In this document: piece by piece, positions 1,184 to 35,986 of the stretch
Position numbering within the stretch: the stretch's first letter is position 1
How the letters are laid out: each line of letters begins with the position of its first letter
Virus record (IMG/VR): IMGVR_UViG_3300029853_000009
Origin: a virus
Direction: 5' to 3' (one strand)
Length of the DNA stretch: 58,930 nucleotides
Notes under the pieces: model-generated
Database searches by the model: none
What the model was told of the DNA's origin: nothing
The model's input: the letters and a program-made list of their open reading frames with translations, nothing else
Made by a program: the position numbers and the translations under genes

Positions 1184-1266
1184 CGTAGTGTATAGGACTC
1201 GAACCTATAAGCCGTTGCCGACCGAAAGTTTAGCAAACTTCTCCAATACCATTATGGGAACACTAC
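1184..1266 (-). tRNA. tRNA-Ser (anticodon GCU), type II with long variable arm
   Basis: Hand fold: acceptor GTAGTGT/ACACTAC; anticodon stem GAAGT/ACTTT with loop TTGCTAA; variable hairpin GTCG-GCAA-CGGC; T arm ATAGG-TTCGAGT-CCTAT. Confidence 0.8.
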
Positions 1267-1993
1267 AAATAAACAAATATGATTAGGGTTTCCCCTTATT
1301 CTCCATAAGTACAGTCATATTCAGCCACCATGATGATAAGTCTGAGCGTTTGGGTGCGACCCTTAGCTTCTTACCACTGTCGAGCATGAGCAGGAATGAT
1401 ACCTGCAAATTTCACGGTTCTTTCAGGATTTTATATATGCAATATTATTCTTTTCCAAATTTGCCATACCGCTACTTTAACAAGTGTCTTGTGTTATACA
1501 TCAATTTCTTGATTTCAAGGCAAACTAGCTTAATTGAAGTTCCTATCTATTTCGTAGTCTTTCACACCACAAACATCAATAGGTTATTCTCGCACTACGA
1601 GCGTCTATTATTCACCAGCCACAAGCACCTTGCTTTTGACTTCTTTATGATGATACACCACACCACTCTGTTGACAACTTTGTCATCTTCTCTATCAAAA
1701 TCACTTTTAACAGAAAGCCTATTACTTTCCAGTATCCCGAAAAGTCTTTGACTCATTTCAGTGTGTCCTAGCAAGGCTGAAAGACCTATCTACACTAGGG
1801 TAATCATATTTGTTAAATGCTGGCATAGGGATTGAACCTATGTTTTAGCCTAAATCTAACCAGCCTTAATTGCATACATTATAGTGGGTATGCAAGCCAC
1901 TTTGCTTAGAATACAATAAGGGGGAATAAGGGGAGACTACTTCTAAGCATACAAAATACATTAAAGAATTAGGGGGATTTAAAAATCCCCAGC
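1267..1993 (-). ncRNA. ORF-free block between two tRNAs; candidate large structured ncRNA (ROOL/GOLLD-like class)
   Basis: No minus-strand ORF of 60 aa or more across ~0.7 kb in an otherwise gene-dense genome. Several strong hairpins (GCATAC...GTATGC, CTTAGAA...TTCTAAG, GGGGATTT..AAATCCCC). tRNA genes on both sides. Confidence 0.3.
1818..1867 (-). other. tRNA-like minihelix (acceptor-like stem, one hairpin, T arm); not a complete tRNA
   Basis: Minus sense AGGCTGG-TTAG ATTTAGG CTAA-AA-CATAGG TTCAATC CCTATG-CCAGCAT. The T loop is canonical and there is no D arm. Confidence 0.4.
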
Positions 1994-7631: not shown

Positions 7632-9200
7632 TTACAAAAAATATCCTATCAAAATTCCTAACTCATTAGTATGTTTTGATTTACAGTCGTATTCTTTAAT
7701 ATCAGAATATAATTGTAATATTTTATCAGATTTGATTTTATAATTATATTTTAAGAACATTCTGTCTAGCTGCTTTAACATTACTGAAAGCTTAGATATC
7801 TTCAACATCTTATTTATTGAATCACGTTCATGGCCTTTGCATATACTTGAATAAAATCGGATTAATTTCCCAATATCAATCCAATATTTATCGTCAGCTT
7901 GATTTGTGATTGAATCATTGAAATACAAATCAAGAGATTGTACAAGATTTAACGCCAGTAAAGCCCTTGAAATAAAGCCATTATCAATTTGCTGGTAAAT
8001 GCAGCCAATACCTATTTTGTGCAATATTTCATTTATATTTCCACTATTATTAAATATCCAGTCGATAATATTATTTCTGTACATTATAAGATTGCATTTG
8101 ATATTCATATCTATATGTAATGTATCAATTTCGTTAAACATATTATATTTTAGATATTTATTAAAAAATACATTATCAATAATATCTAAAAATTCTTGCT
8201 TATTATTATAAACACTATAATATTGCTCATTCTTATCATCTTGCAGATATTTTTTTAATTCAAATGGCTTCTTAAGCTTATAATTATAATTAACTAAATT
8301 TGAATACTTAATAATTGCGGACAGATTATTCTGAATGAACAGCATGTATCCAGAAATATTGCACTGCGGCAACTCACCATTTTGGCATGAAATAATATTA
8401 TCTTTCCATGTATCAAAAAATATTAAATTTTTACCTTGAGTCGCATTTTTTAAAAAAAATTCAAACAATTCTCTCTGTCCTAATGCTTGTTCAATATCAA
8501 TCAACGTAGGAATAGAAAGCTTTCTCGTTCTGTGTTCTAAATAAGGTTTCTTTAAATTTAACACCATATTATCATTTGGCAACCCATAAATATTATCATT
8601 CATTTTTATATTAAAATCATTTTTTAAAAATATATTAGGGATTAAATATCTATTTTCTTCATTAATATATACTTCCTCATCGTCTTCAAAAAATATTTTG
8701 AGATAATTCTTTTTCTGCAAATTCACACCTAGTTTTTCCAAGCAGAAAATGTGGTCTTTAATCCATTTTTTATTCTTTTCAAGTCGAACTGTATTAATAT
8801 CGCCTGCGACTTTATACGCAAGTTCATACAATGTTTTTTCCGCTTTTTTGCAGTTCTCACCGGGATTAAGCAGTTTATTAAAATAATTGTCAATAATCTT
8901 CGCTGTCAACTTACCGCTATCAATATTTTCATATTTTACCCAAAATGACATATAATTATTAGAATGAATTATTTTCTTATTATCTTGAGCCTTATTCATA
9001 TTTATAAGACTACTATGATAATCATAAAAACAAATACTCTTATATAGTTTGTCGTTTTTATTTAATCTTGTGCCTTTCTTAAAAGAAACAAAATTAACAG
9101 TATCATCCTTATTTACAACAATATAATCCCCCACATCATGGATATCATGCACTATGTCCGGGGGATTTTTTTTAAATACTTTCATACATTCATCTATCAT
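7632..9200 (-). CDS. 522-aa ORFan of unknown function; very AT-rich, Asn/Lys/Ile-rich
   Basis: A long uninterrupted ORF whose composition clearly differs from the flanking phage genes. It is insulated by hairpins on both sides. I recognised no catalytic motif. Confidence 0.75.
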   Translation of the reverse strand: MIDECMKVFKKNPPDIVHDIHDVGDYIVVNKDDTVNFVSFKKGTRLNKNDKLYKSICFYDYHSSLINMNKAQDNKKIIHSNNYMSFWVKYENIDSGKLTAKIIDNYFNKLLNPGENCKKAEKTLYELAYKVAGDINTVRLEKNKKWIKDHIFCLEKLGVNLQKKNYLKIFFEDDEEVYINEENRYLIPNIFLKNDFNIKMNDNIYGLPNDNMVLNLKKPYLEHRTRKLSIPTLIDIEQALGQRELFEFFLKNATQGKNLIFFDTWKDNIISCQNGELPQCNISGYMLFIQNNLSAIIKYSNLVNYNYKLKKPFELKKYLQDDKNEQYYSVYNNKQEFLDIIDNVFFNKYLKYNMFNEIDTLHIDMNIKCNLIMYRNNIIDWIFNNSGNINEILHKIGIGCIYQQIDNGFISRALLALNLVQSLDLYFNDSITNQADDKYWIDIGKLIRFYSSICKGHERDSINKMLKISKLSVMLKQLDRMFLKYNYKIKSDKILQLYSDIKEYDCKSKHTNELGILIGYFL

Positions 9201-24783: not shown

Positions 24784-25516
24784 CTAAAACGGACATTCAT
24801 TTCCTTTCCTTAAAACCCATTCCTTGTTACGCTCTGCAACATCTACATTTGCCCCACAAGCGACTTTTTTCATCTTCTCGATAAAACTATCACTATCAGA
24901 ATTTTCGCTCGATAAATGGCACATTATGACATTCTGCAAGTTATCCGAATAATTCGCCTTAACAAAGTCACAAGCTGTGTCAATGGATAAGTGACCTCTG
25001 AAAACGTGATTGGCTTTGCCTGTGTTATCCCTGTCGATTAAATCCTTGTCATAATTCACACCTAAGAGAATGTGGTTTATGTCTTTAAACTTCCACTTGA
25101 TTAATTCACAATCGGTTATGTAAAGCATTCTCCCCATTTCCTTGTGTGTAATCAGAAAGCCGAATATCGGGCAAGGTGTTCCATCTGCATTTGTGTGTGT
25201 CCAGTTTCCGTCTATCGTTGTTAAATCAAAAGGTTTTACTGTAAATTCGCCCATATTCATTGATTTACAGCTATCCCCTAAATATGGGGCAAGTATCGGT
25301 ATTCCCATTGGCTTAAAATCGTTTAATGACCTTGAATGGTCGTCAATAATGCTCGTGTGAAATAAGGCAGCCTACTATATTTTTTACATTCCAATCACAC
25401 ATCTTTTTTATGTCTTTAATTCCCATTCCTACATCAAGAATAAGTGTTTCATTCTCTGACATAAGAGCGTAAGAATTTCCTTTGCTTCCAGTTCCGCAAC
25501 ATTTCAATTTGAGCAT
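24784..25516 (-). pseudogene. Metallo-beta-lactamase-fold hydrolase gene split by a frameshift inside the HxHxDH motif
   Basis: The N-terminal frame (25343-25516) ends ...GCLISHEHY-stop. The +1 frame continues IDDHSRSLNDFKPMGIPILAPY... to 24784. The break lies in cacgagcattattgacgaccat (~25346-25367). Confidence 0.6.
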
Positions 25517-26103
25517 TACATCACCTCGCTTTCATCTGCAAGTTTCCAAATATATCCGCCCGCCTGTTTTCTAATACCGCCTTTATTATTAAAAGGTTCT
25601 TTATTGGCTACTTGTAAAATATTTCTCCGACATATTCCTGTCATCCTACTTGCAACTTCTCCATTTACATATGTAGCGAGTAATACTCCATCCCTAGTGT
25701 ATTGGCATATTTTTCTTGGTTTCTCATATTTGTTATAATTAACAATTCCTGTAACCACTTGTGGGTGCGTTTTTTCCGTTTCTTTTCTGTGCCTCTTTGG
25801 ATGAATATATTCCAAATTTGAGACGATATTGTTTTGCTTATTTCCGTCTTTATGGTGTACTTGATATCCTTGTAATCTATCTCCTATAAAATGTTCTGCA
25901 ACCAATTGATGTATTGCTATTGACTTGTTTTTGTTAGTTACAGAATTTCTTAAAACAATGCGAAGATAATCTCCTGTTGCATTTTGATTTGATAGAATAT
26001 ATCCGCCCTCTGTCTTTTTAAAACTCTTTACTCTTCCGTAATTGGAAATCTGATATTGCCCCTCAAAGCCTTTTATCCACTTCCATTCTTCATCCATACT
26101 CAC
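25516..26103 (-). CDS. HNH homing endonuclease with a NUMOD4-like N-terminus
   Basis: WKWIKGFEGQYQISNYGRVKS, plus HHKDGNKQNNIVSNLEY. Confidence 0.8.
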   Translation of the reverse strand: MSMDEEWKWIKGFEGQYQISNYGRVKSFKKTEGGYILSNQNATGDYLRIVLRNSVTNKNKSIAIHQLVAEHFIGDRLQGYQVHHKDGNKQNNIVSNLEYIHPKRHRKETEKTHPQVVTGIVNYNKYEKPRKICQYTRDGVLLATYVNGEVASRMTGICRRNILQVANKEPFNNKGGIRKQAGGYIWKLADESEVM

Positions 26104-26475: not shown

Positions 26476-27555
26476 TCAGCTCTCCTCACTCTGCATAAAT
26501 GGCGGTAATGTGCTATCTTCTGCCTGTTTTTCGGTTGCTTCTGTTGTCGTGGTATCAACTACATCAGCCTTATCTTCTATAAACTCAACAGTATTAGCAT
26601 TTTCGGCAATTTCAGCCTGTGCAACTTGATATACCTCATCCATTTCAACCTGTGCCTGTCTTGCCATTGGGTCATAGTTCTTAGGGTATTTTCTTGTTGC
26701 ATTGTTGCACATTTTTCTCTGTATCATACTCTCTGGAGTATCAAGCCAAGCACCGCTTATAAAAGGCCTTGCAAGCTCACATTCAAGCATTTCATCTACT
26801 GTCTTGCACGCTCTTAAAGCATTAAGTATCTCGTCTTTCTTAGCCTTAATTTCGGCTTTCTGCTTTGGTGTTGCGTGGTATCTATCCTCACAAATGCCAA
26901 AAGTCTCATTCATTATGTTTTGCTTAACATGAGCTAAAAGATTTACCTTAACGCTGTCTCTATCAGCAGAAAGATATGTTACTGTTCCGTCTAGCAGCTT
27001 AACAGGATATACAACTCTTACCGCTTTATTAGATAATCCGCTTTCTTCCCACTCCGGCTCTGTGACTGTAAGACCTTTATGCTTAGGTGGTATGTACTTG
27101 TCGCCCTCTTTAATTACCCAATACGGATATACCTGTTTAACATCTTTTCCATAGTTGGCGAGCAAAGAGTCATAACCTGTACCCTCAATTCCCATTTCAA
27201 CCTGTTTCTGCCATATATCCTTGTTTGTCTGCGGGTCAGTTCCCACCTTTACATTTCTTAACTGAAAATAACACTCTCTTGGATATGCACTAGCATTTAA
27301 CTTAAGACTTGCACAACGCTTAACAATGCCCCTTAAATTACTTGTATCAAGGTTTCCCATGTTAATCTTAGGGTCACTCTTAACAAGATTAAATATGCTT
27401 GTCATAGCTTCCATAGCGCACTCTTTTGCGTAATCGTCCATATCCATTCCAACAGCCTTATAATCATTGATAATAAGTCCTGTCATTGTGTTGCTCCACT
27501 CACTTAAAGAGGTGGTAAACGCTTTCTTTTCTACAACTGCTGTATTCTCTGCCAT
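26476..27555 (-). CDS. RecT-like single-strand annealing protein (tentative)
   Basis: Size, position next to SSB and the nucleases, and central ECYFQLRNVKV...GIEGTGYDSLLANYG...VIKEGDKY resemble RecT. RBS AGAGGAA before the ATG at 27555. Confidence 0.45.
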   Translation of the reverse strand: MAENTAVVEKKAFTTSLSEWSNTMTGLIINDYKAVGMDMDDYAKECAMEAMTSIFNLVKSDPKINMGNLDTSNLRGIVKRCASLKLNASAYPRECYFQLRNVKVGTDPQTNKDIWQKQVEMGIEGTGYDSLLANYGKDVKQVYPYWVIKEGDKYIPPKHKGLTVTEPEWEESGLSNKAVRVVYPVKLLDGTVTYLSADRDSVKVNLLAHVKQNIMNETFGICEDRYHATPKQKAEIKAKKDEILNALRACKTVDEMLECELARPFISGAWLDTPESMIQRKMCNNATRKYPKNYDPMARQAQVEMDEVYQVAQAEIAENANTVEFIEDKADVVDTTTTEATEKQAEDSTLPPFMQSEES

Positions 27556-27560
27556 TATCT

Positions 27561-28616
27561 CTATTCCTCTCTTTCTAATAATTTTTTTACATATAAATCC
27601 ATTGAACGGCACAACTTTATGCAATTCCCATGCAACGCATGATTCTTCCACGCATTGTATCTTTCATAAAACTTCTTCTCTGTCATTCTTCCTGTTTTAA
27701 CCAACTCACACCACTTACGCAGTTGCTTTCGGATTCTGCGCTTATTAGTACTCGTTAATTTTCTTATGCACTTTCCGTCTTTTGTGACATAATGATGAAA
27801 GCCTGTAAATAAAATCCCACTTTTAAACGGAATTATTTGCGTTTTACCGTTTAGTGATAGTCCAAGGCTTTCCACAAACCGCCGAATACATTCAAGACAC
27901 CATTTCAAATAATCTTTGCTCGGCGCTATCAAATAAAAATCGTCCATATATCTGCCATACAGCTTCACTCCTAACTCACCTGTTACAAAATGGTCTAATC
28001 CATTCAGCATAAGTAATGCGTATACTTGCGCTACTTGATTGCCAAGCGGAAGCCCCAAACCGTCAGTACTGTCAATGTATAGATTATTCAGCCACACTGT
28101 ATACTCATCATTAAAATAGTAATCAACTACGTCTTTCAGAATATCGTGGTTTATTTGATAGAAAAACTTCGTAATATCGCATTTCAAAATCCAACCGTCA
28201 AGCCCGTGCTGGTTGTAAAATTCAAGCATTTGCTCTTCCAAACAGTCCATTCCAAAATGTGTGCCTTTTCCTGTCTGACCGGCATAATTCGTTCTAATAA
28301 ATTCACCGGATAATTGTGGGTGCAACACATTGTCGCACAAGCAATGCTGTACTACTTTATCTTTAAAAGAACACGACTTAATCACTCTTTCCTTTGGTTC
28401 ATAAACCTTAAATTCATTGTACGGATTCACTCTATATGTTTGATTTTCAAGTTGTTCTTTTAACATATGTAGTCCCTTAAGGCTCATCGCCTGAAACCTA
28501 GCACTGCTTCCATTGAAGCCTTTGCCTACTTTAGCTTTTTTATAAGCCTTATACAGATTTTCATAATTACAAACAATCTCTTTATCCATAATAAAAATTC
28601 CTTTGTATTTACCCAT
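27561..28616 (-). CDS. DGR reverse transcriptase
   Basis: YMDD box (GRYMDDFYLI), DGR-type LGNQVAQ motif, and location immediately 3' of the TR. The start may be the internal ATG at 28589. Confidence 0.9.
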   Translation of the reverse strand: MGKYKGIFIMDKEIVCNYENLYKAYKKAKVGKGFNGSSARFQAMSLKGLHMLKEQLENQTYRVNPYNEFKVYEPKERVIKSCSFKDKVVQHCLCDNVLHPQLSGEFIRTNYAGQTGKGTHFGMDCLEEQMLEFYNQHGLDGWILKCDITKFFYQINHDILKDVVDYYFNDEYTVWLNNLYIDSTDGLGLPLGNQVAQVYALLMLNGLDHFVTGELGVKLYGRYMDDFYLIAPSKDYLKWCLECIRRFVESLGLSLNGKTQIIPFKSGILFTGFHHYVTKDGKCIRKLTSTNKRRIRKQLRKWCELVKTGRMTEKKFYERYNAWKNHALHGNCIKLCRSMDLYVKKLLEREE

Positions 28617-28687
28617 TCAGGGAAGGTTACACACTTTTTTGTATCTTTCTCTGATTTCGGCTTATTGCCTACTCTTACTGTCTGTAT

Positions 28688-28764
28688 GATACAGAATGGG
28701 CGAACACCGTTGTTGTTGTTACAGTTGTTGTTGTTGATATTGCCGGACGGCGAAACAACGGTTT
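28688..28764 (-). repeat. DGR template repeat (TR)
   Basis: Non-coding. The coding-sense core is AAT ATC AAC AAC AAC AAC TGT AAC AAC AAC AAC. It aligns without gaps to both VRs. Confidence 0.9.
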
Positions 28765-28788
28765 ATACAGTGCGTAACCTATAATGTT

Positions 28789-29160
28789 TTATCTTCCTCT
28801 GTCTTTGGTTCTCCAAGCAATCGCCATGTGTTTAATGTCAGAAACCATCTTAGACCAGTATTCCATACTCTTAATATTGATGATATTCAGCTTCATTGAT
28901 AACTCAATATAAAATAGCAATTCATCGCAATGTGTTATTGCTTTGGTCTGCAACTCTGACCGTTCTCTGCGATATAATTTCAAGTCTGTCCGATTGGCTT
29001 CATATATGTATTCATAGATTTCTAATGCCTTATTCTGCATTTTATCTATCAATGAAAATCTGTATTTTTTCGGGTATCGGTTACAATTTGAAGTTATTCG
29101 CAAAGTATGTTCTGCCAGTTCTTTTGCTTTTAAAATAACTTTTAATTCTGTTTCTGCCAT
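28789..29160 (-). CDS. avd: DGR accessory variability determinant (Avd, four-helix-bundle type)
   Basis: 123 aa, basic, helical; RYPKKYRFSLIDKMQNKALEIYEYIYEAN pattern; sits between target and TR. Confidence 0.8.
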   Translation of the reverse strand: MAETELKVILKAKELAEHTLRITSNCNRYPKKYRFSLIDKMQNKALEIYEYIYEANRTDLKLYRRERSELQTKAITHCDELLFYIELSMKLNIINIKSMEYWSKMVSDIKHMAIAWRTKDRGR

Positions 29161-29163
29161 TTA

Positions 29164-29778
29164 CTAATCCTCTGATTCAAAGATTGAAGAGGAAAAGATA
29201 CAAAATGGGCGAACACCGTAGTTGCGGTTACAGAGGTTGAGGTGGATATAGCCGTACGGCGAAACAACGGTTACTGACGATTTATAGCCATTACGCTTTG
29301 TGCTCCAAGGCGTACAAGTCCACCACCAATAATTATCCGTGTTAGGGATAAATCTTCTGTACTTGCGGTAGTCATCTATAGTCAGCAGAGATACTTTGTC
29401 TTCGCAGTTTCCATATTCATTTTGCCCGTCAAGTGAAAACAGACTGCGATTAAACGAAATAATATTTTCTTCTCCTAATTCATTAATAACCCTTTGTATA
29501 AATTCTGTGTTGAGATATTCTCTTAACTGACTTCCAATCCAATTATTCGATTCACTATCAAACTTCATTGAATTTTCCAATCTGTCAGCAAGACACATAT
29601 ATCCTTTATCTGTAATATCAAGGATTGTCCATTTAAGCCCAGCAAGTTTAAATGTATCTCCCGTGCTTAATCCGGCTGGAATCTTTCTTGTTTTTTCAAC
29701 TGCTTTTAAAACAGCAACTTCATTTCTTAATTCATTAATTTGCTCCTGCAAACTTTTCATTGTCAATGTCATAATCAT
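29164..29778 (-). CDS. DGR variable protein 1 (C-type-lectin/FGE-like C-terminal domain)
   Basis: WWWTCTPWST...VVSPYGYIHLNLCNRNYGVRPFCIF; VR1 lies at its 3' end. Confidence 0.85.
   Translation of the reverse strand: MIMTLTMKSLQEQINELRNEVAVLKAVEKTRKIPAGLSTGDTFKLAGLKWTILDITDKGYMCLADRLENSMKFDSESNNWIGSQLREYLNTEFIQRVINELGEENIISFNRSLFSLDGQNEYGNCEDKVSLLTIDDYRKYRRFIPNTDNYWWWTCTPWSTKRNGYKSSVTVVSPYGYIHLNLCNRNYGVRPFCIFSSSIFESED
29197..29273 (-). repeat. DGR variable repeat 1 (VR1)
   Basis: Offset +509 from the TR. Nine core differences, all at TR adenines (coding sense). Confidence 0.9.
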
Positions 29779-30380
29779 TCTCCTTTTGATACAAAGATAT
29801 TAGATTTTAAGATACAAAAAGGGCGAACACCGTAGAGGCCGTAACAGCGGTTGTTGCAGATATCGCCGGACGGCGAAACAACGGCGATTTCATATTTCCA
29901 ACCTCTATCAGCAGTAGACCAAGGCGTACAAGTCCACCACCAATCGTCAAATTCTTTATTAACAAGCAAATTATTATACTTTCTTGCTTCGTCAAATGTT
30001 ATCGGTCTTACCTTGCAATAACAAGGCTTAAATTCATCTTGCATATCAACAGATGTTAAATTAACAACCTGTTCAATAATGTTTCCTGCTCCAACCTCTG
30101 CTTCAATGACCGGCTGAATCTTTTCTTCAATAACCCTTTTAAGATTAGAACTTTTATAATCTCTTGTATCGTTGTCAAAAACAACGTTCTTTGCCATAAA
30201 GCTTTTAGATATTACATTTGTTGTGCCACTGCAACCGTTTTGCTCAAGAACGATAAAATTATGTTCTCCGATTTTAAACGTTTCTCCAGGCTGTAATTCT
30301 GATAACTGTACCTTATTAGTCTTTTCTGCTTCTTCTAACTTTCTCACAAGTTCTCTTGCAAGTTCCAATTCTCTACTCAT
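29775..30380 (-). CDS. DGR variable protein 2 (paralogue of target 1)
   Basis: WWWTCTPWST...VVSPSGDICNNRCYGLYGVRPFCIL. VR2 lies at its 3' end, and its stop overlaps the start of target 1 (ATGA). Confidence 0.85.
   Translation of the reverse strand: MSRELELARELVRKLEEAEKTNKVQLSELQPGETFKIGEHNFIVLEQNGCSGTTNVISKSFMAKNVVFDNDTRDYKSSNLKRVIEEKIQPVIEAEVGAGNIIEQVVNLTSVDMQDEFKPCYCKVRPITFDEARKYNNLLVNKEFDDWWWTCTPWSTADRGWKYEIAVVSPSGDICNNRCYGLYGVRPFCILKSNIFVSKGE
29811..29887 (-). repeat. DGR variable repeat 2 (VR2)
   Basis: Offset +1123 from the TR. Eleven core differences, all at TR adenines. Confidence 0.9.
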
Positions 30381-30701
30381 TTAATTTTCCTCACTTTCTT
30401 CGATTATCTTTAATTCCATTTCTTCTCTTTCAAGTCTTTCTTTTGCCTGCGCAATCCTTGATTCTGCTCGGTTCTTAAATTTCTCCTTGGCATACTCAAA
30501 ATTAGGTTCTGTAAGAAACAACTGATTAAAATCAGTTATTCGCCCAACATCATCTTTCCTTGCTGTACTACAGTAGTTTGGAAAAACTCTATCAACAGAC
30601 TTGTATGTCTTAGGCTTCTCTTCTGCTTCACAAACCTGTACTGTAATTCCTGTTTTTTCGTATTTTCCAGCTGTATTCAATTCGTAAAAATAAAGTTTCA
30701 T
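30381..30701 (-). CDS. Hypothetical protein
   Basis: RBS GGAGGG before the ATG at 30701. Confidence 0.5.
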   Translation of the reverse strand: MKLYFYELNTAGKYEKTGITVQVCEAEEKPKTYKSVDRVFPNYCSTARKDDVGRITDFNQLFLTEPNFEYAKEKFKNRAESRIAQAKERLEREEMELKIIEESEEN

Positions 30702-30702
30702 A

Positions 30703-32646
30703 TTATCCCTCCACAATCTCTAATTTCTCACTATTATTAACAATCAGCATAATCAACTGACTATCAACCATTTCAGCAACTTTTTTCTGATTATCTGTAC
30801 TAAGGCTTTCAGAATCATCCAAGATAATAGGAACTGATATTCCACTAATCTTCTGTATTGAGTTGCATATATCAACTCTTCCTAAAATCCTGTTGCCCTT
30901 GTTGCTCATAGTTGTTAAAATGCTCTTCCCGTCAACTGTAGGTATGCAACAACTCTTGTAATTGCCATTCTTGGCATATTCAAACAACTGCCACTTAATT
31001 AACCCAAAATGACTATTTACTGCTTCTGTCAAGGCTTCATTCTTTGCTTTGTCTAATTCATCAAGTAAATCAAGGATTTTCTCCGCATTAGCCTTATTCT
31101 GTTCAGAATCAATCCTTGTCTGCTTTAATTCCTCAAGTCGCTGTTCGTCTGCTGCCGTATCAGACTTTACAATCCGGCTTTCGCATTCTGCTAACTGCTG
31201 CCTTAAAGCTGTTTCCTGTGCCTTTAATTCTGCCTTAACTGCCGAAATATCGTTAGCCTTGTGCATAGCTTCTTCTTTTTCAGTTATCTTCTGTTCAAGT
31301 GCCTTGTATTCTTCGGTGGCTGTTACATCAATTTCCTGTGGAAGTTCTGATAACTGCTTCTTAAGGTCTGCAATGGCTGTATTCAGCATTTCAAGACTTT
31401 CTTTATGCTGTGGCAGCTCTGACACGAGTTCTGTAAGCACTTTCCTCTCTTTCTTTAATCGTTCACTGTACATATTGCCATTGTCAGTAATTGTCTTTAA
31501 GTTATCAGCCTTATGTTTTTCAAAATCAGCCTTTAACTGTTCTTTCTTATCTTCCTTATATTCATTGCCACAATAAGGACAAATAAGGCTATTCTCGTCA
31601 AACTTACGCTCATTCTCTTCTTTCCACTTGTTACGCTCTGTTTGTAAATATCCTTTAATGCTCTCGATAGTCTTTTCAGAACTAGCAATGCAACTTTCTG
31701 TATCGGTAATAGTCTTTTCTGTCTGCTTAACGAGAAACTTCTTATCAGAAATCTTGTCCTCAATCTCCCTCCTAGCCTTAACATTATCTTCATTAGCCTT
31801 GCGTGATAAATCTCCCTGCTTAAACTTCAAATCAAGAATATCAGCACTAGCCTTGTCATATTCAGCTAACAACTTGTCATTGTCTGTCTGCTTTGCCACA
31901 CAATCAGCAATCTGTTCTTTAAGGCTGTTCTTCTGCAATTCAAGGTCAGATACATCAATGCCCTGTTTAATCTGTACATCACGCTCTTTCTCTTCAATCT
32001 GCCCTTTCAGCTTTTTGGCATTATCATCAACATCTTTTTTGATTTCATTGTTCATAGCGCGTATTTCTTCGTATGTGTATTTTTTAAAAAGTGGTACTAA
32101 TTCAGCAAGTTCGCTTTTAGACTTTGCCATATCAAGGTCGGTTGTTTTCTTTACTAAACTGAAAAGATATTCTCTCATTTCCTTTGGCTTCTGCGTAAGA
32201 AATACATTGATATTGCTACACATTTTGAAAATGTTCATATTAACATCAAGATATTCATTGAATGCCTTTAATGTCTTTGAAACGCTGTTGATATAATATG
32301 AATTAGGGTCTTTTACAGTTGTTATAGCAACTCCGTCCTTTATTACTTCTTCATAAGTACGCTTCTGCACTTTCTTCATAGTGATTTCTTTTCCGTCAAC
32401 ATCAAAAGTAAGTTCAACAGATACATCCATATCATCAACGGATTTTCCGTCAATCTCTCGTCTTACAACCGGATTATCCTTTAACGAATAATCACAGTTA
32501 AACAGACACCAGTTGTATGCCGTAGCAATACTGGATTTTCCTTTGCCGTTCATTGCAAAGATTTTTGTTAAATCAAAGAAGTTAAATTCTTCATGTGCAT
32601 AACACATAAAATTTTCAACTGTTATCTTTAAAAGCTTAATTTTCAT
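30703..32646 (-). CDS. Rad50/SbcC-like SMC-type ATPase with a zinc hook
   Basis: Walker A NGKGKSS, a long coiled coil with a central CPYCG (CxxC hook), and C-terminal PIILDDSESL (Walker B/D-loop). Confidence 0.75.
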   Translation of the reverse strand: MKIKLLKITVENFMCYAHEEFNFFDLTKIFAMNGKGKSSIATAYNWCLFNCDYSLKDNPVVRREIDGKSVDDMDVSVELTFDVDGKEITMKKVQKRTYEEVIKDGVAITTVKDPNSYYINSVSKTLKAFNEYLDVNMNIFKMCSNINVFLTQKPKEMREYLFSLVKKTTDLDMAKSKSELAELVPLFKKYTYEEIRAMNNEIKKDVDDNAKKLKGQIEEKERDVQIKQGIDVSDLELQKNSLKEQIADCVAKQTDNDKLLAEYDKASADILDLKFKQGDLSRKANEDNVKARREIEDKISDKKFLVKQTEKTITDTESCIASSEKTIESIKGYLQTERNKWKEENERKFDENSLICPYCGNEYKEDKKEQLKADFEKHKADNLKTITDNGNMYSERLKKERKVLTELVSELPQHKESLEMLNTAIADLKKQLSELPQEIDVTATEEYKALEQKITEKEEAMHKANDISAVKAELKAQETALRQQLAECESRIVKSDTAADEQRLEELKQTRIDSEQNKANAEKILDLLDELDKAKNEALTEAVNSHFGLIKWQLFEYAKNGNYKSCCIPTVDGKSILTTMSNKGNRILGRVDICNSIQKISGISVPIILDDSESLSTDNQKKVAEMVDSQLIMLIVNNSEKLEIVEG

Positions 32647-32747
32647 CCTCGAACCCCATAACCTTTCCGTCATTCAGAATAACTGTCTGACCTTTCATTT
32701 CCTGCATTTCAATACAATCCTGAATTGTTATTTTCTCTCTGTTCATT

Positions 32748-35410: not shown

Positions 35411-35502
35411 AGTGACAAAAAATCTGAAATAGCAAAACAAGTATTGAAAGTACTAATGCAACATCTGAAACAGACGTTTTTTTCATTTTTTCAGCTCCTT
35501 TC

Positions 35503-35598
35503 TGTTGACCTTGTAAGCATACAATATCATACTGTGTTAGCAATGTCAATACTTTTTAATCATTTTTTGTTGACTTTGTTAGCATCAAATGTTATATT
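35503..35598 (+). promoter_or_regulatory. Repressor promoter/operator region
   Basis: Two ~23-nt direct repeats, TGTTGACCTTGTAAGCATACAAT (35503-35525) and TGTTGACTTTGTTAGCATCAAAT (35568-35590). The second contains TTGACT-17 nt-TATATT. Confidence 0.55.
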
Positions 35599-35623
35599 TG
35601 TTTTACAGAAAAGAGGTGAGACG

Positions 35624-35986
35624 ATGAATGAACGCTTAAGAGCTTTAAGAGAACTCTTAAATAAAAGTCAGGATGAATTTGGAAAAGATTTGGGGCTGTC
35701 CAGAAATTACATATCTTTATTAGAAAACGGACAACGAAATCTTTCAGAACAATCTATCAAAGTTTTATGCAACGAATTTTCAGTTAATGAAGATTGGCTG
35801 CGTACTGGTCAAGGGGATATGTTCAAACCACGAACCAAGAATGAAGAACTTCTTAGTTTCGTTAATGATGTGATGGAGCTTGAAGATGATAGTTTCAAAA
35901 AGAAACTTGTCAATGCGTTGGCAAAATTAGATACTAAAGACTGGGAATGTCTGGAAAACATCGCTAGTAAACTATCAGAAGAGTAA
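35624..35986 (+). CDS. CI-like XRE-family repressor
   Basis: MNERLRALRELLNKSQDEFGKDLGLSRNYISLLENGQRNLSEQSIKVL; RBS AAGAGGTGA; opposite orientation to the lytic genes. Confidence 0.8.
   Translation: MNERLRALRELLNKSQDEFGKDLGLSRNYISLLENGQRNLSEQSIKVLCNEFSVNEDWLRTGQGDMFKPRTKNEELLSFVNDVMELEDDSFKKKLVNALAKLDTKDWECLENIASKLSEE

Follow-up and report, generated by a model that had tools for sequence, protein, structure and literature searches.

Positions 27561 to 30380 of the viral genome analyzed here (IMG/VR record IMGVR_UViG_3300029853_000009; 58,930 nucleotides, hereafter the window) hold a cassette with the makeup of a diversity-generating retroelement (DGR), that is, a template repeat (TR), a reverse transcriptase (RT), the accessory gene avd and two target genes that end in variable repeats (VRs). 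In the open reading frame (ORF) listing and in the sequence of the window, the minus-strand order is target2 (T2), target1 (T1), avd, TR, and RT, as the first-pass annotation of this DNA had given it. The elements of the cassette are as follows.

29775 to 30380, minus strand: T2, 201 aa, an N-terminal helix and a DUF6273 lectin-like domain (ORF, Pfam, and PHROG)
29811 to 29884, minus strand: VR2, at the 3' end of T2, an ungapped TR match at offset +1123
29164 to 29778, minus strand: T1, 202 to 204 aa, an N-terminal helix and a DUF6273 domain, likely start at 29772
29197 to 29272, minus strand: VR1, at the 3' end of T1, an ungapped TR match at offset +509
28789 to 29160, minus strand: avd (accessory variability determinant), 123 aa, isoelectric point (pI) 9.4, PHROG 3206
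28769 to 28780, minus strand: upstream strand of an RNA duplex, AGGUUACGCACU, cPRT-Stop-like, bracketing the TR (RNAalifold)
28688 to 28763, minus strand: TR, noncoding, with AAT ATC (AAC)4 TGT (AAC)4, from its alignment to the VRs
28688 to 28697, minus strand: ATTCTGTATC, specific to the TR and similar to IMH* (IMH, initiation of mutagenic homing)
28659 to 28695, minus strand: two small conserved hairpins 3' of the TR (UCUGU/ACAGA, 28695 to 28681; GGC/GCC, 28669 to 28659)
28624 to 28635, minus strand: downstream (spacer) strand of the duplex, AGUGUGUAACCU (RNAalifold)
28601 to 28622, minus strand: 3-bp stem-loop CCC/GGG, then an A-rich tail and the ribosome-binding site of the RT
27561 to 28589, minus strand: RT, 342 aa, with YMDD and LGNQVAQ; the ORF is also open from 28616

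The TR sits between the avd stop codon and the RT start, and both VRs stop 10 to 11 codons short of the stop codons of their targets. The repeat had been described as a sharp 77-nt unit; the gap-free alignment of 28688 to 28764 to both target ends stands, but about 74 to 76 nt is a better estimate of its size, with clear homology beginning at 28763 for VR1 and at 28761 for VR2. T1 probably starts at its second ATG (29772), because this codon has the better Shine-Dalgarno spacing (GGAG 8 nt upstream), and the T2 stop codon is then followed by a 2-nt gap, in place of an ATGA overlap of T2 and T1. For the RT, the gene caller had chosen the ATG at 28616 (351 aa), which falls within a conserved RNA stem-loop and is not present in relatives; for this reason the most likely start is the ATG at 28589, behind AAAGGAA, which gives the 342-aa protein as called in related contigs.

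Differences between the repeats are concentrated at the adenines of the TR. In the 36-nt core, VR1 has 9 mismatches and VR2 has 11, all 20 of them at coding-sense TR adenines, with none of the 17 non-A positions changed. These counts agree with those of the first-pass annotation, as does a real additional non-A difference at 28746 (C in the TR and A in VR1, coding sense). Over 63 nt, 9 of 10 VR1 mismatches are at A (hypergeometric p = 3e-5). When each A of the TR was replaced by N, the resulting pattern was found at exactly three sites in 58.9 kb and at none in 100 shuffles. The shared GC-rich block CGGTGTTCGCCC is, as stated before, the same in TR, VR1, and VR2, and it has these three occurrences in the window and nowhere else. 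No remote VR was detected in the window, either with the A-to-N pattern or by searching for the shared block, and none in any tail gene. Both VRs equal the TR in length and have the GC block intact. Randomization in each target affects nine NNY codons and one NTC codon that surround an invariant Cys, which amounts to about 1.5e11 possible peptides per target.

For comparison, we fetched 27 loci of relatives from IMG/VR via T1 (L001 to L027) and 35 more via the exact TR core. The TR-bearing genomes form two sets, one of 12 (11 IMG/VR relatives and the window) and one of the 35 further genomes, with 70 TR/VR pairs altogether. TR/VR mismatches fell on TR adenines in 200 of 205 cases in the first set and in 544 of 556 in the second, and A>G was the most frequent change in TR-bearing genomes, followed by A>T and then A>C. 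The TR was nearly invariant in the 47 genomes and the VRs were almost all unique; the 30 VR1 copies of TR-bearing genomes were all distinct, and neither VR of the window was found in any other genome compared. Some TRs carry variants at positions other than A, and these recur in their own VRs: GTTGCCCCGGCTGGC...TGC in L026, GTTGCGCC in L024, AATTGT in L015, L017, and L023, an extra AAC codon in L007 and L012, and CGTCC in L031. Such mirroring of non-A variants in the cognate VRs is the expected footprint of one-way TR-to-VR transfer, and the comparative evidence shows a unidirectional flow of information from an invariant TR to variable VRs.

The end of the transferred segment could also be delimited. 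The 4 nt after GGTGTTCGCCC are ATTC in nearly every TR and ATTT, TTTT, GGCT, or GTTC in almost all VRs, VR2 of L009, with ATTC, being an exception. A C-to-T variant inside the GC block covaries between TR and VRs, and the transfer boundary is accordingly placed directly 3' of the block. Judged from these alignments, the last transferred part of the TR is GGTGTTCGCCC (28698), with an IMH/IMH*-like distinction between TR and VR beyond it.

The same pattern was observed at the population level. Column entropy in 120 homologues of each target peaks exactly at the TR adenine codons (hypervariable residues 177, 179 to 182, and 184 to 187 in T1 and 173, 175 to 178, and 180 to 183 in T2), and the TGT-encoded Cys is invariant among them. 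Residues at the TR adenine codons are encodable by NNY in 2,176 of 2,178 cases (two exceptions), and only I, F, V, and L appear at the position of the ATC codon. Homologues of T1 and T2 form 1,982 and 4,779 clusters, respectively, at 90% identity, many of them on contigs of 55 to 59 kb. One relative (L013, 4794 to 6609) has three tandem VR-bearing DUF6273 genes instead of two, and in several genomes a VR is longer than the local TR by one codon or more, such VRs being common to genomes unchanged. For L038, a correctly registered scan did not bear out a candidate third VR about 1.76 kb upstream of its TR.

The RT matched Pfam RVT_1 (E 2e-15) and PHROG 1423 (E 4e-103). Its best solved relative was PDB 8ub7_A (E 2e-34 over about 300 aligned residues), which we take to be the bRT of Bordetella phage BPP-1; group II intron RTs gave 1e-13. 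The motifs YMDD and LGNQVAQ, already pointed out in the earlier annotation, are present and invariant in 16 related RTs. Avd, a basic protein as claimed (123 aa, pI 9.4), matched PHROG 3206, “Avd protein of DGR” (E 8e-23), and had no PDB sequence match.

The similarity of TR and VRs might in principle be an ordinary duplication or gene conversion of gene 3' ends, beside an RT derived from a group II intron, a retron, or a defense system. T1 and T2 are in fact paralogues (36% identical), and the RT has subthreshold matches to group II intron, retron, and Drt models. However, these NCBIfam matches reach 96.7 bits against a cutoff of 300 for the group II RT/maturase model (group_II_RT_mat) and 35 against 235 for the retron model, with Drt also below its cutoff, the Rfam scan of the window gave no intron or retron RNA, and 8ub7_A is the closest solved relative, ahead of group II intron RTs by 20 orders of magnitude in E value. 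The TR is noncoding and invariant, the VRs are variable, and Avd adjoins the RT. With mismatches 97 to 98% adenine specific in the 70 TR/VR pairs, the spectrum already refutes this explanation, to which we assign a negligible probability.

The structure of the DGR RNA was derived with RNAalifold from 12 genomes, a small sample with 9 distinct sequences. The 200-nt region that separates the avd stop codon from the RT start has a mean column identity of 92%, above that of the flanking genes. A 12-bp long-range duplex between AGGUUACGCACU (28780 to 28769) and AGUGUGUAACCU (28635 to 28624) brackets the TR, and beyond it there are a 3-bp stem-loop (28622 to 28612) and an A-rich tail. The duplex is paired in 99% of cells and contains three pairs with compensatory changes, which, together with two of the three pairs of the CCC/GGG stem-loop, add up to five compensatory pairs. 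As controls, none of 500 shuffles reached the observed score, and sliding the partners by 1 to 3 columns left 27 to 51% paired. The long-range duplex was preferred as the chief RNA feature to a local hairpin at the TR 3' end, because only the duplex covaries. Handa et al. described the cPRT Stop as an avd:Sp duplex averaging 13 bp in other DGRs, followed by a stem-loop and adenosines (10.1101/2023.10.23.563531). The duplex, stem-loop, and adenosines predicted here are consistent with that architecture, small as the sample is, and the covarying duplex supports the cPRT-Stop model independently, from comparative data on a Firmicutes phage. No convincing 9-bp Avd-binding stem-loop was found in the spacer, which has only two short hairpins (28695 to 28681 and 28669 to 28659). 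These are invariant and thus give no covariation evidence; by analogy with the published system (10.1101/2023.10.23.563531), they may have a role in Avd binding.

Both TR and RT are missing in 16 of the 27 relatives and in the prophage of Lachnospira intestinalis CLA-AA-H89B, with T1 and T2 intact. There are three deletion types, with remnants of 63, 150, and 446 nt (about 6600 to 6760 in L001 to L027; 5209 to 5660 in L034). Codon 5 of avd is joined to the last 13 RT codons in one junction, codon 31 is joined to the RT tail of the last 13 codons in another, and the whole avd plus 12 nt is joined slightly further upstream in the RT in the third. The first two junctions are at short (A)CAGATTT repeats (microhomology). 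We then counted shared VR cores in genome pairs with target gene bodies at least 95% identical, a small sample of nonindependent genomes. When both genomes lacked the RT, the cores were identical in 7 of 25 pairs for VR1 and 4 of 29 for VR2; when both carried it, in 0 of 11 and 0 of 5. Three exceptions among mixed pairs have a VR length no longer equal to that of the local TR. Within the limits of such a sample, the counts fit VRs that keep changing with the RT and would freeze once it is lost.

It might be argued that the cassette of the window is itself an inactive relic, its VRs written earlier and now frozen as in the RT-less relatives. The frequency of RT loss (16 of 27) would favor this, as would the identical VRs found in three samples of a TR-bearing relative and the single non-adenine difference between TR and VR1. 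However, RT, avd, TR, and RNA duplex are intact and constrained, as indicated by the invariant motifs and the compensatory changes in the duplex, and the VRs have the length of the TR, an intact GC block, and sequences that are both unique among the genomes compared. We consider a relic improbable.

Our conclusion, held with high confidence, is that this cassette is a complete DGR, active over evolutionary time, in a temperate siphophage of Lachnospira. Adenine-directed mutagenic retrohoming of the BPP-1 type, as the first-pass annotation had proposed, is supported by the RT, Avd, the A-only signature, the directionality of transfer, the RNA duplex, and the placement of the elements. In such a cycle, the avd-TR-RT region would be transcribed, and RT and Avd would bind an RNA with the TR enclosed by the 12-bp duplex, followed by the small stem-loop and adenosines. 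The TR would then be reverse transcribed with misincorporation opposite adenines, and the cDNA would replace the homologous VR at the 3' end of T1 or T2, with a boundary just past GGTGTTCGCCC. By analogy, we infer a priming chemistry like that of BPP-1.

Several observations weigh against this conclusion. The usual DGR RT motif is [I/L/V]GxxxSQ; LGNQVAQ keeps the Leu, Gly, and Gln, but Ala replaces the usual Ser, and the VRs that go with the 16 related RTs carrying LGNQVAQ all show adenine mutagenesis. Avd is below the curated cutoffs of NCBIfam DivGenRetAVD (E 3e-12, 46.8 bits) and Pfam bAvd (E 4e-5, 24.5 bits). The hairpin 3' of the VR is weak for VR1 (z = -2.1) and absent for VR2 (z = +0.9); in BPP-1 such a hairpin or cruciform serves target recognition, but not all DGRs have one. 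Finally, L031, L032, and L033 (an NCBI assembly and two SRA runs), three contigs of a TR-bearing relative from different samples, are 100% identical over 3.5 to 5 kb, both VRs included, and encode an identical T2 protein, which reflects either the same strain or a slow DGR turnover in that lysogen. The sole other contig with the T2 of the window is likewise identical to the window.

Both targets were assigned to DUF6273, a domain described as C-type-lectin-like (PMC10743442). T1 matched the Pfam model at E 1e-10 (42.2 bits) and PHROG 9958 at E 4e-46, and T2 reached 23.6 bits against a Pfam cutoff of 23.5, with E 4e-29 to the same PHROG. T1 is 30 to 34% identical to the small targets of nd4, nd12 (tgt2), Lelie, and Toutatis, and AlphaFold predicted an N-terminal helix at residues 2 to 30 with a predicted local distance difference test score (pLDDT) of 82 to 91. 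T1 and T2 thus match the small DUF6273 type of DGR target known from nd4 tgt2, with one domain, short flanking helices, and a C-terminal VR. Structural prediction counts less in favor of the lectin fold. The AlphaFold models were poor (pLDDT 66 for T1 with 80 sequences and 53 for T2 with 93 sequences, below 50 in the VR region), and no Foldseek match in PDB or BFVD reached E <= 1e-3, the top matches being the DUF6273-bearing immunoglobulin A (IgA) protease 9qa6 and unnamed phage proteins. The profile of the target alignment retrieved only 9qa6 from the PDB (E 0.003). Because the models are poor and the fold searches nonsignificant, we base the lectin fold on the Pfam match and the literature. 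Neither target has a signal peptide or a recognizable virion-attachment domain, and neither an Ig-like domain nor tail-fiber similarity was found by Pfam, PHROG, or NCBIfam. We take T1 and T2 to be diversified proteins that presumably bind ligands.

The function of these proteins has to be considered together with the genes around them. The immediate neighbors of the cassette are the following.

30381 to 30716, minus strand: orf111, a previously unannotated 111-aa ORF between the ATPase gene and T2, in the same operon and in most relatives
30703 to 32673, minus strand: SbcC/Rad50-like AAA_23 ATPase, upstream flank (Pfam AAA_23 E 2e-15; PHROG 77, SbcC-like, E 6e-57)
26476 to 27555, minus strand: RecT-like single-strand annealing protein (SSAP), downstream flank (PHROG 2185 E 4e-88; Pfam RecT E 9e-5, below cutoff)

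The late genes identified by PHROG and Pfam (terminase, portal, capsid, tape measure, tail proteins, and endolysin [38212 to 37160]) are on the minus strand, and a divergent helix-turn-helix repressor gene is on the plus strand (35444 to 35986). The early operon comprises two antirepressors, the SbcC-like ATPase, orf111, T2, T1, avd, TR, RT, and the RecT-like gene, and then genes for an HNH endonuclease, a metallo-beta-lactamase (MBL)-fold protein, a methyltransferase, a replication initiator and loader, and an integrase. No terminator-like site was found on the minus strand between 33921 and 26453, and the cassette is presumably cotranscribed with the early genes. The promoter scan showed no enrichment over shuffles, for which reason no internal promoters are claimed. 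The placement between the SbcC/Rad50-like ATPase and the RecT-like gene, already recognized in the first-pass annotation, is kept in 27 of 27 relatives, and the order Ant, SbcC-like, orf111, T2, T1, [avd-TR-RT], SSAP was found in all of these and in a prophage within a 2.75-Mb contig. The distance from the tail genes, which had been given as about 9 kb, is indeed large, but the nearest tail-like gene (40540 to 38747) is 8.4 kb away. orf111 had no family match in Pfam, PHROG, NCBIfam, or PADLOC, and the PADLOC and NCBIfam defense models gave nothing for T1, T2, or orf111.

The host genus was identified as Lachnospira from L. intestinalis CLA-AA-H89B and a Lachnospiraceae metagenome-assembled genome, and the phage, a temperate siphophage of this genus, is widespread in the human gut. 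GenBank phages yielded no megablast match to either the cassette or the 23-kb structural arm; the lineage has no annotated close relative among them. Five relatives (L001, L003, L005, L014, and L018) have a different RecT-family gene (MAENTQLVEYESNGEMVKISPTMIRRYLV...) at the RecT-like position downstream of T1 (from about 6690 on), a swap of the single-strand annealing protein in an otherwise collinear module. The HNH endonuclease ORF (25516 to 26103, minus strand) is absent from all 27 relatives, and the MBL-fold gene beside it seems to be split into ORFs of 57 and 174 aa (25343 to 25516 and 24784 to 25308), a split also present in an HNH-less relative.

From gene position only, we lean, with the balance close to even, toward T1 and T2 acting off the virion, as soluble early proteins, which appears somewhat likelier than a role as adhesins. 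Their early-operon position recurs in three unrelated lineages, and the proteins are small and have no attachment domain. A possible alternative, to which we attach less than even probability, is that T1 and T2 are virion-associated receptor-binding or adhesion proteins (Mtd-like or accessory lectins) and that the DGR broadens host range or mucus adherence, the role proposed in the literature for tgt2 of nd4 and nd12 (PMC10743442). What speaks for adhesins, and against a location off the virion, is that the DUF6273 proteins whose location is known or has been proposed are all extracellular or virion associated, including the tentaclin/Hoc-like proteins and a secreted IgA protease that has DUF6273 as its N-terminal domain (PMC10743442, PMC12402451, 10.64898/2026.05.08.723808). 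Both targets match the PHROG “Hoc-like head decoration” weakly, their best PDB match by sequence and fold is the IgA protease 9qa6, most phage DGR targets are tail proteins (PMC8144416), and the predicted N-terminal helix could mediate oligomerization or docking. On the other hand, T1 and T2 are genes of the early operon and are separated from the closest tail-like gene by 8.4 kb in 27 of 27 relatives, and the small DUF6273 targets of the unrelated nd4 and Toutatis are also in early/replication regions. Neither virion-attachment domains, Ig-like domains, nor tail-fiber similarity were detected in them (Pfam, PHROG, and NCBIfam), and no remote VR was found in tail genes.

Two more speculative ideas, both suggested by position alone and both rather unlikely in our estimation, can be put forward. 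The first is that T1 and T2 are early-expressed cytoplasmic proteins, absent from the virion, that work as antibody-like, DGR-made intracellular binders, the ligands of which could be variable host defense or takeover targets or a competitor phage. Separately, adjacency to RecT and SbcC might serve cDNA installation: as in recombineering, single-strand annealing by the phage protein at the replication fork might place an antisense cDNA of about 70 nt in the VR. Against the latter, two different SSAP families occupy that position among the relatives, and, to our knowledge, other DGRs are without such recombination-gene neighbors. If true, annealing-coupled installation would address the unsolved cDNA-integration step of DGRs.

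Whatever the function of the targets, this very common lineage includes natural RT-plus and RT-minus genomes, in which one can directly compare what diversification brings and what becomes of frozen VRs, and a cultured isolate of L. intestinalis (CLA-AA-H89B), whose prophage has TR and RT deleted but retains avd, offers such a comparison.

Two features far from the cassette deserve mention. A 522-aa ORF at 7632 to 9200 (minus strand) matched the PADLOC model of Cas8b, the type I-B large subunit (E 5e-110, model positions 1 to 428 of 559), a label left uncorroborated by Pfam, NCBIfam, PHROG, PDB, and GenBank phages, none of which gave a match. Neither another cas gene nor a CRISPR array lies nearby, and the local GC content is low (0.28). 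One possibility is a solitary viral homologue of a cas gene, like those for which anti-CRISPR activity has been shown (10.1101/2023.06.24.545427). In addition, Rfam RF03087 identified a full-length ROOL RNA (363 bits, E 3e-83) at 1265 to 1823 (minus strand), flanked by tRNA-Ser (1183 to 1267) and tRNA-Gln (1992 to 2063).

The first-pass annotation had regarded the two adjacent targets and their location away from tail fibers as unusual, which was an overstatement, since DUF6273 targets, two-target phage DGRs, and a nonstructural target have already been published. DUF6273 DGR targets, small single-domain ones included, appear in two studies (PMC10743442, PMC11792537). Baykov et al. described tentaclins and small single-domain tgt2 proteins in phages nd4 and nd12 (PMC10743442), and Gulyaeva et al. 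reported two-target DGRs and, in the Faecalibacterium phages Lelie and CP11, large and small DUF6273 targets (PMC11792537). Toutatisvirus has two DUF6273 targets, one of them 17 kb from the TR, and its DGR-less phages keep the targets (10.1101/2024.10.15.618418). Benler et al. reported a Quimbyviridae DGR with a nonstructural second target (PMC8008677). The small DUF6273 targets of nd4 and Toutatis lie among early/replication genes, a placement that goes undiscussed in the papers describing them; published guesses make such targets receptor-binding proteins and leave the position at which they are encoded unremarked. Small DUF6273 targets therefore recur in early regions of several unrelated gut phages, and in the phage described here they are the sole targets.

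Compared with the mtd-avd-TR-brt system of BPP-1, the cassette has the same order of target, avd, TR, and RT. In both, the VR is located 3' in the target gene, mutagenesis is limited to adenines, VR and TR have a GC-rich block at their 3' ends with discriminating bases beyond it, and an upstream:spacer RNA duplex (predicted here) is followed by a stem-loop and adenosines (cPRT Stop; 10.1101/2023.10.23.563531). The cassette differs in its shorter TR (about 75 nt versus 134) and spacer (about 95 nt versus about 140), in the RT motif (LGNQVAQ versus IGSLTSQ), and in having no convincing cruciform after the VRs. The BPP-1 DGR is located at the tail-fiber locus, whereas here two tandem targets are found in an early recombination module, both of them DUF6273 proteins of about 200 aa without the beta-prism and beta-sandwich domains of Mtd.

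Closer parallels are the small targets of nd4 and nd12 (tgt2), Lelie, CP11, and Toutatisvirus, which share DUF6273, a C-terminal VR, a similar size, and short flanking helices, and Toutatisvirus also shares the loss of the DGR with retention of the targets. However, in those phages the small target is the second one, often remote, and the RT is beside a large Ig-domain tentaclin/Hoc-like target, while the phage of Lachnospira has no large target, and its two targets are both small and in tandem, with avd-TR-RT alongside. The Quimbyviridae (PMC8008677) resemble it in having a target away from the structural module, among DNA-metabolism and defense-like genes, that was read as nonstructural, but they are phages of Bacteroidetes with an additional structural target by the tail fibers and a different target family. 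Lagaffe_CP and other two-target phage DGRs (PMC11792537) also have one TR, two homologous targets, and a population signal at both VRs, although their targets are Mtd-like (FGE-type C-lectin fold) and in the structural region. As a DGR, the cassette is ordinary; what distinguishes it is that both targets are small and in tandem, that the whole cassette is in the recombination module, and that there is no structural target.

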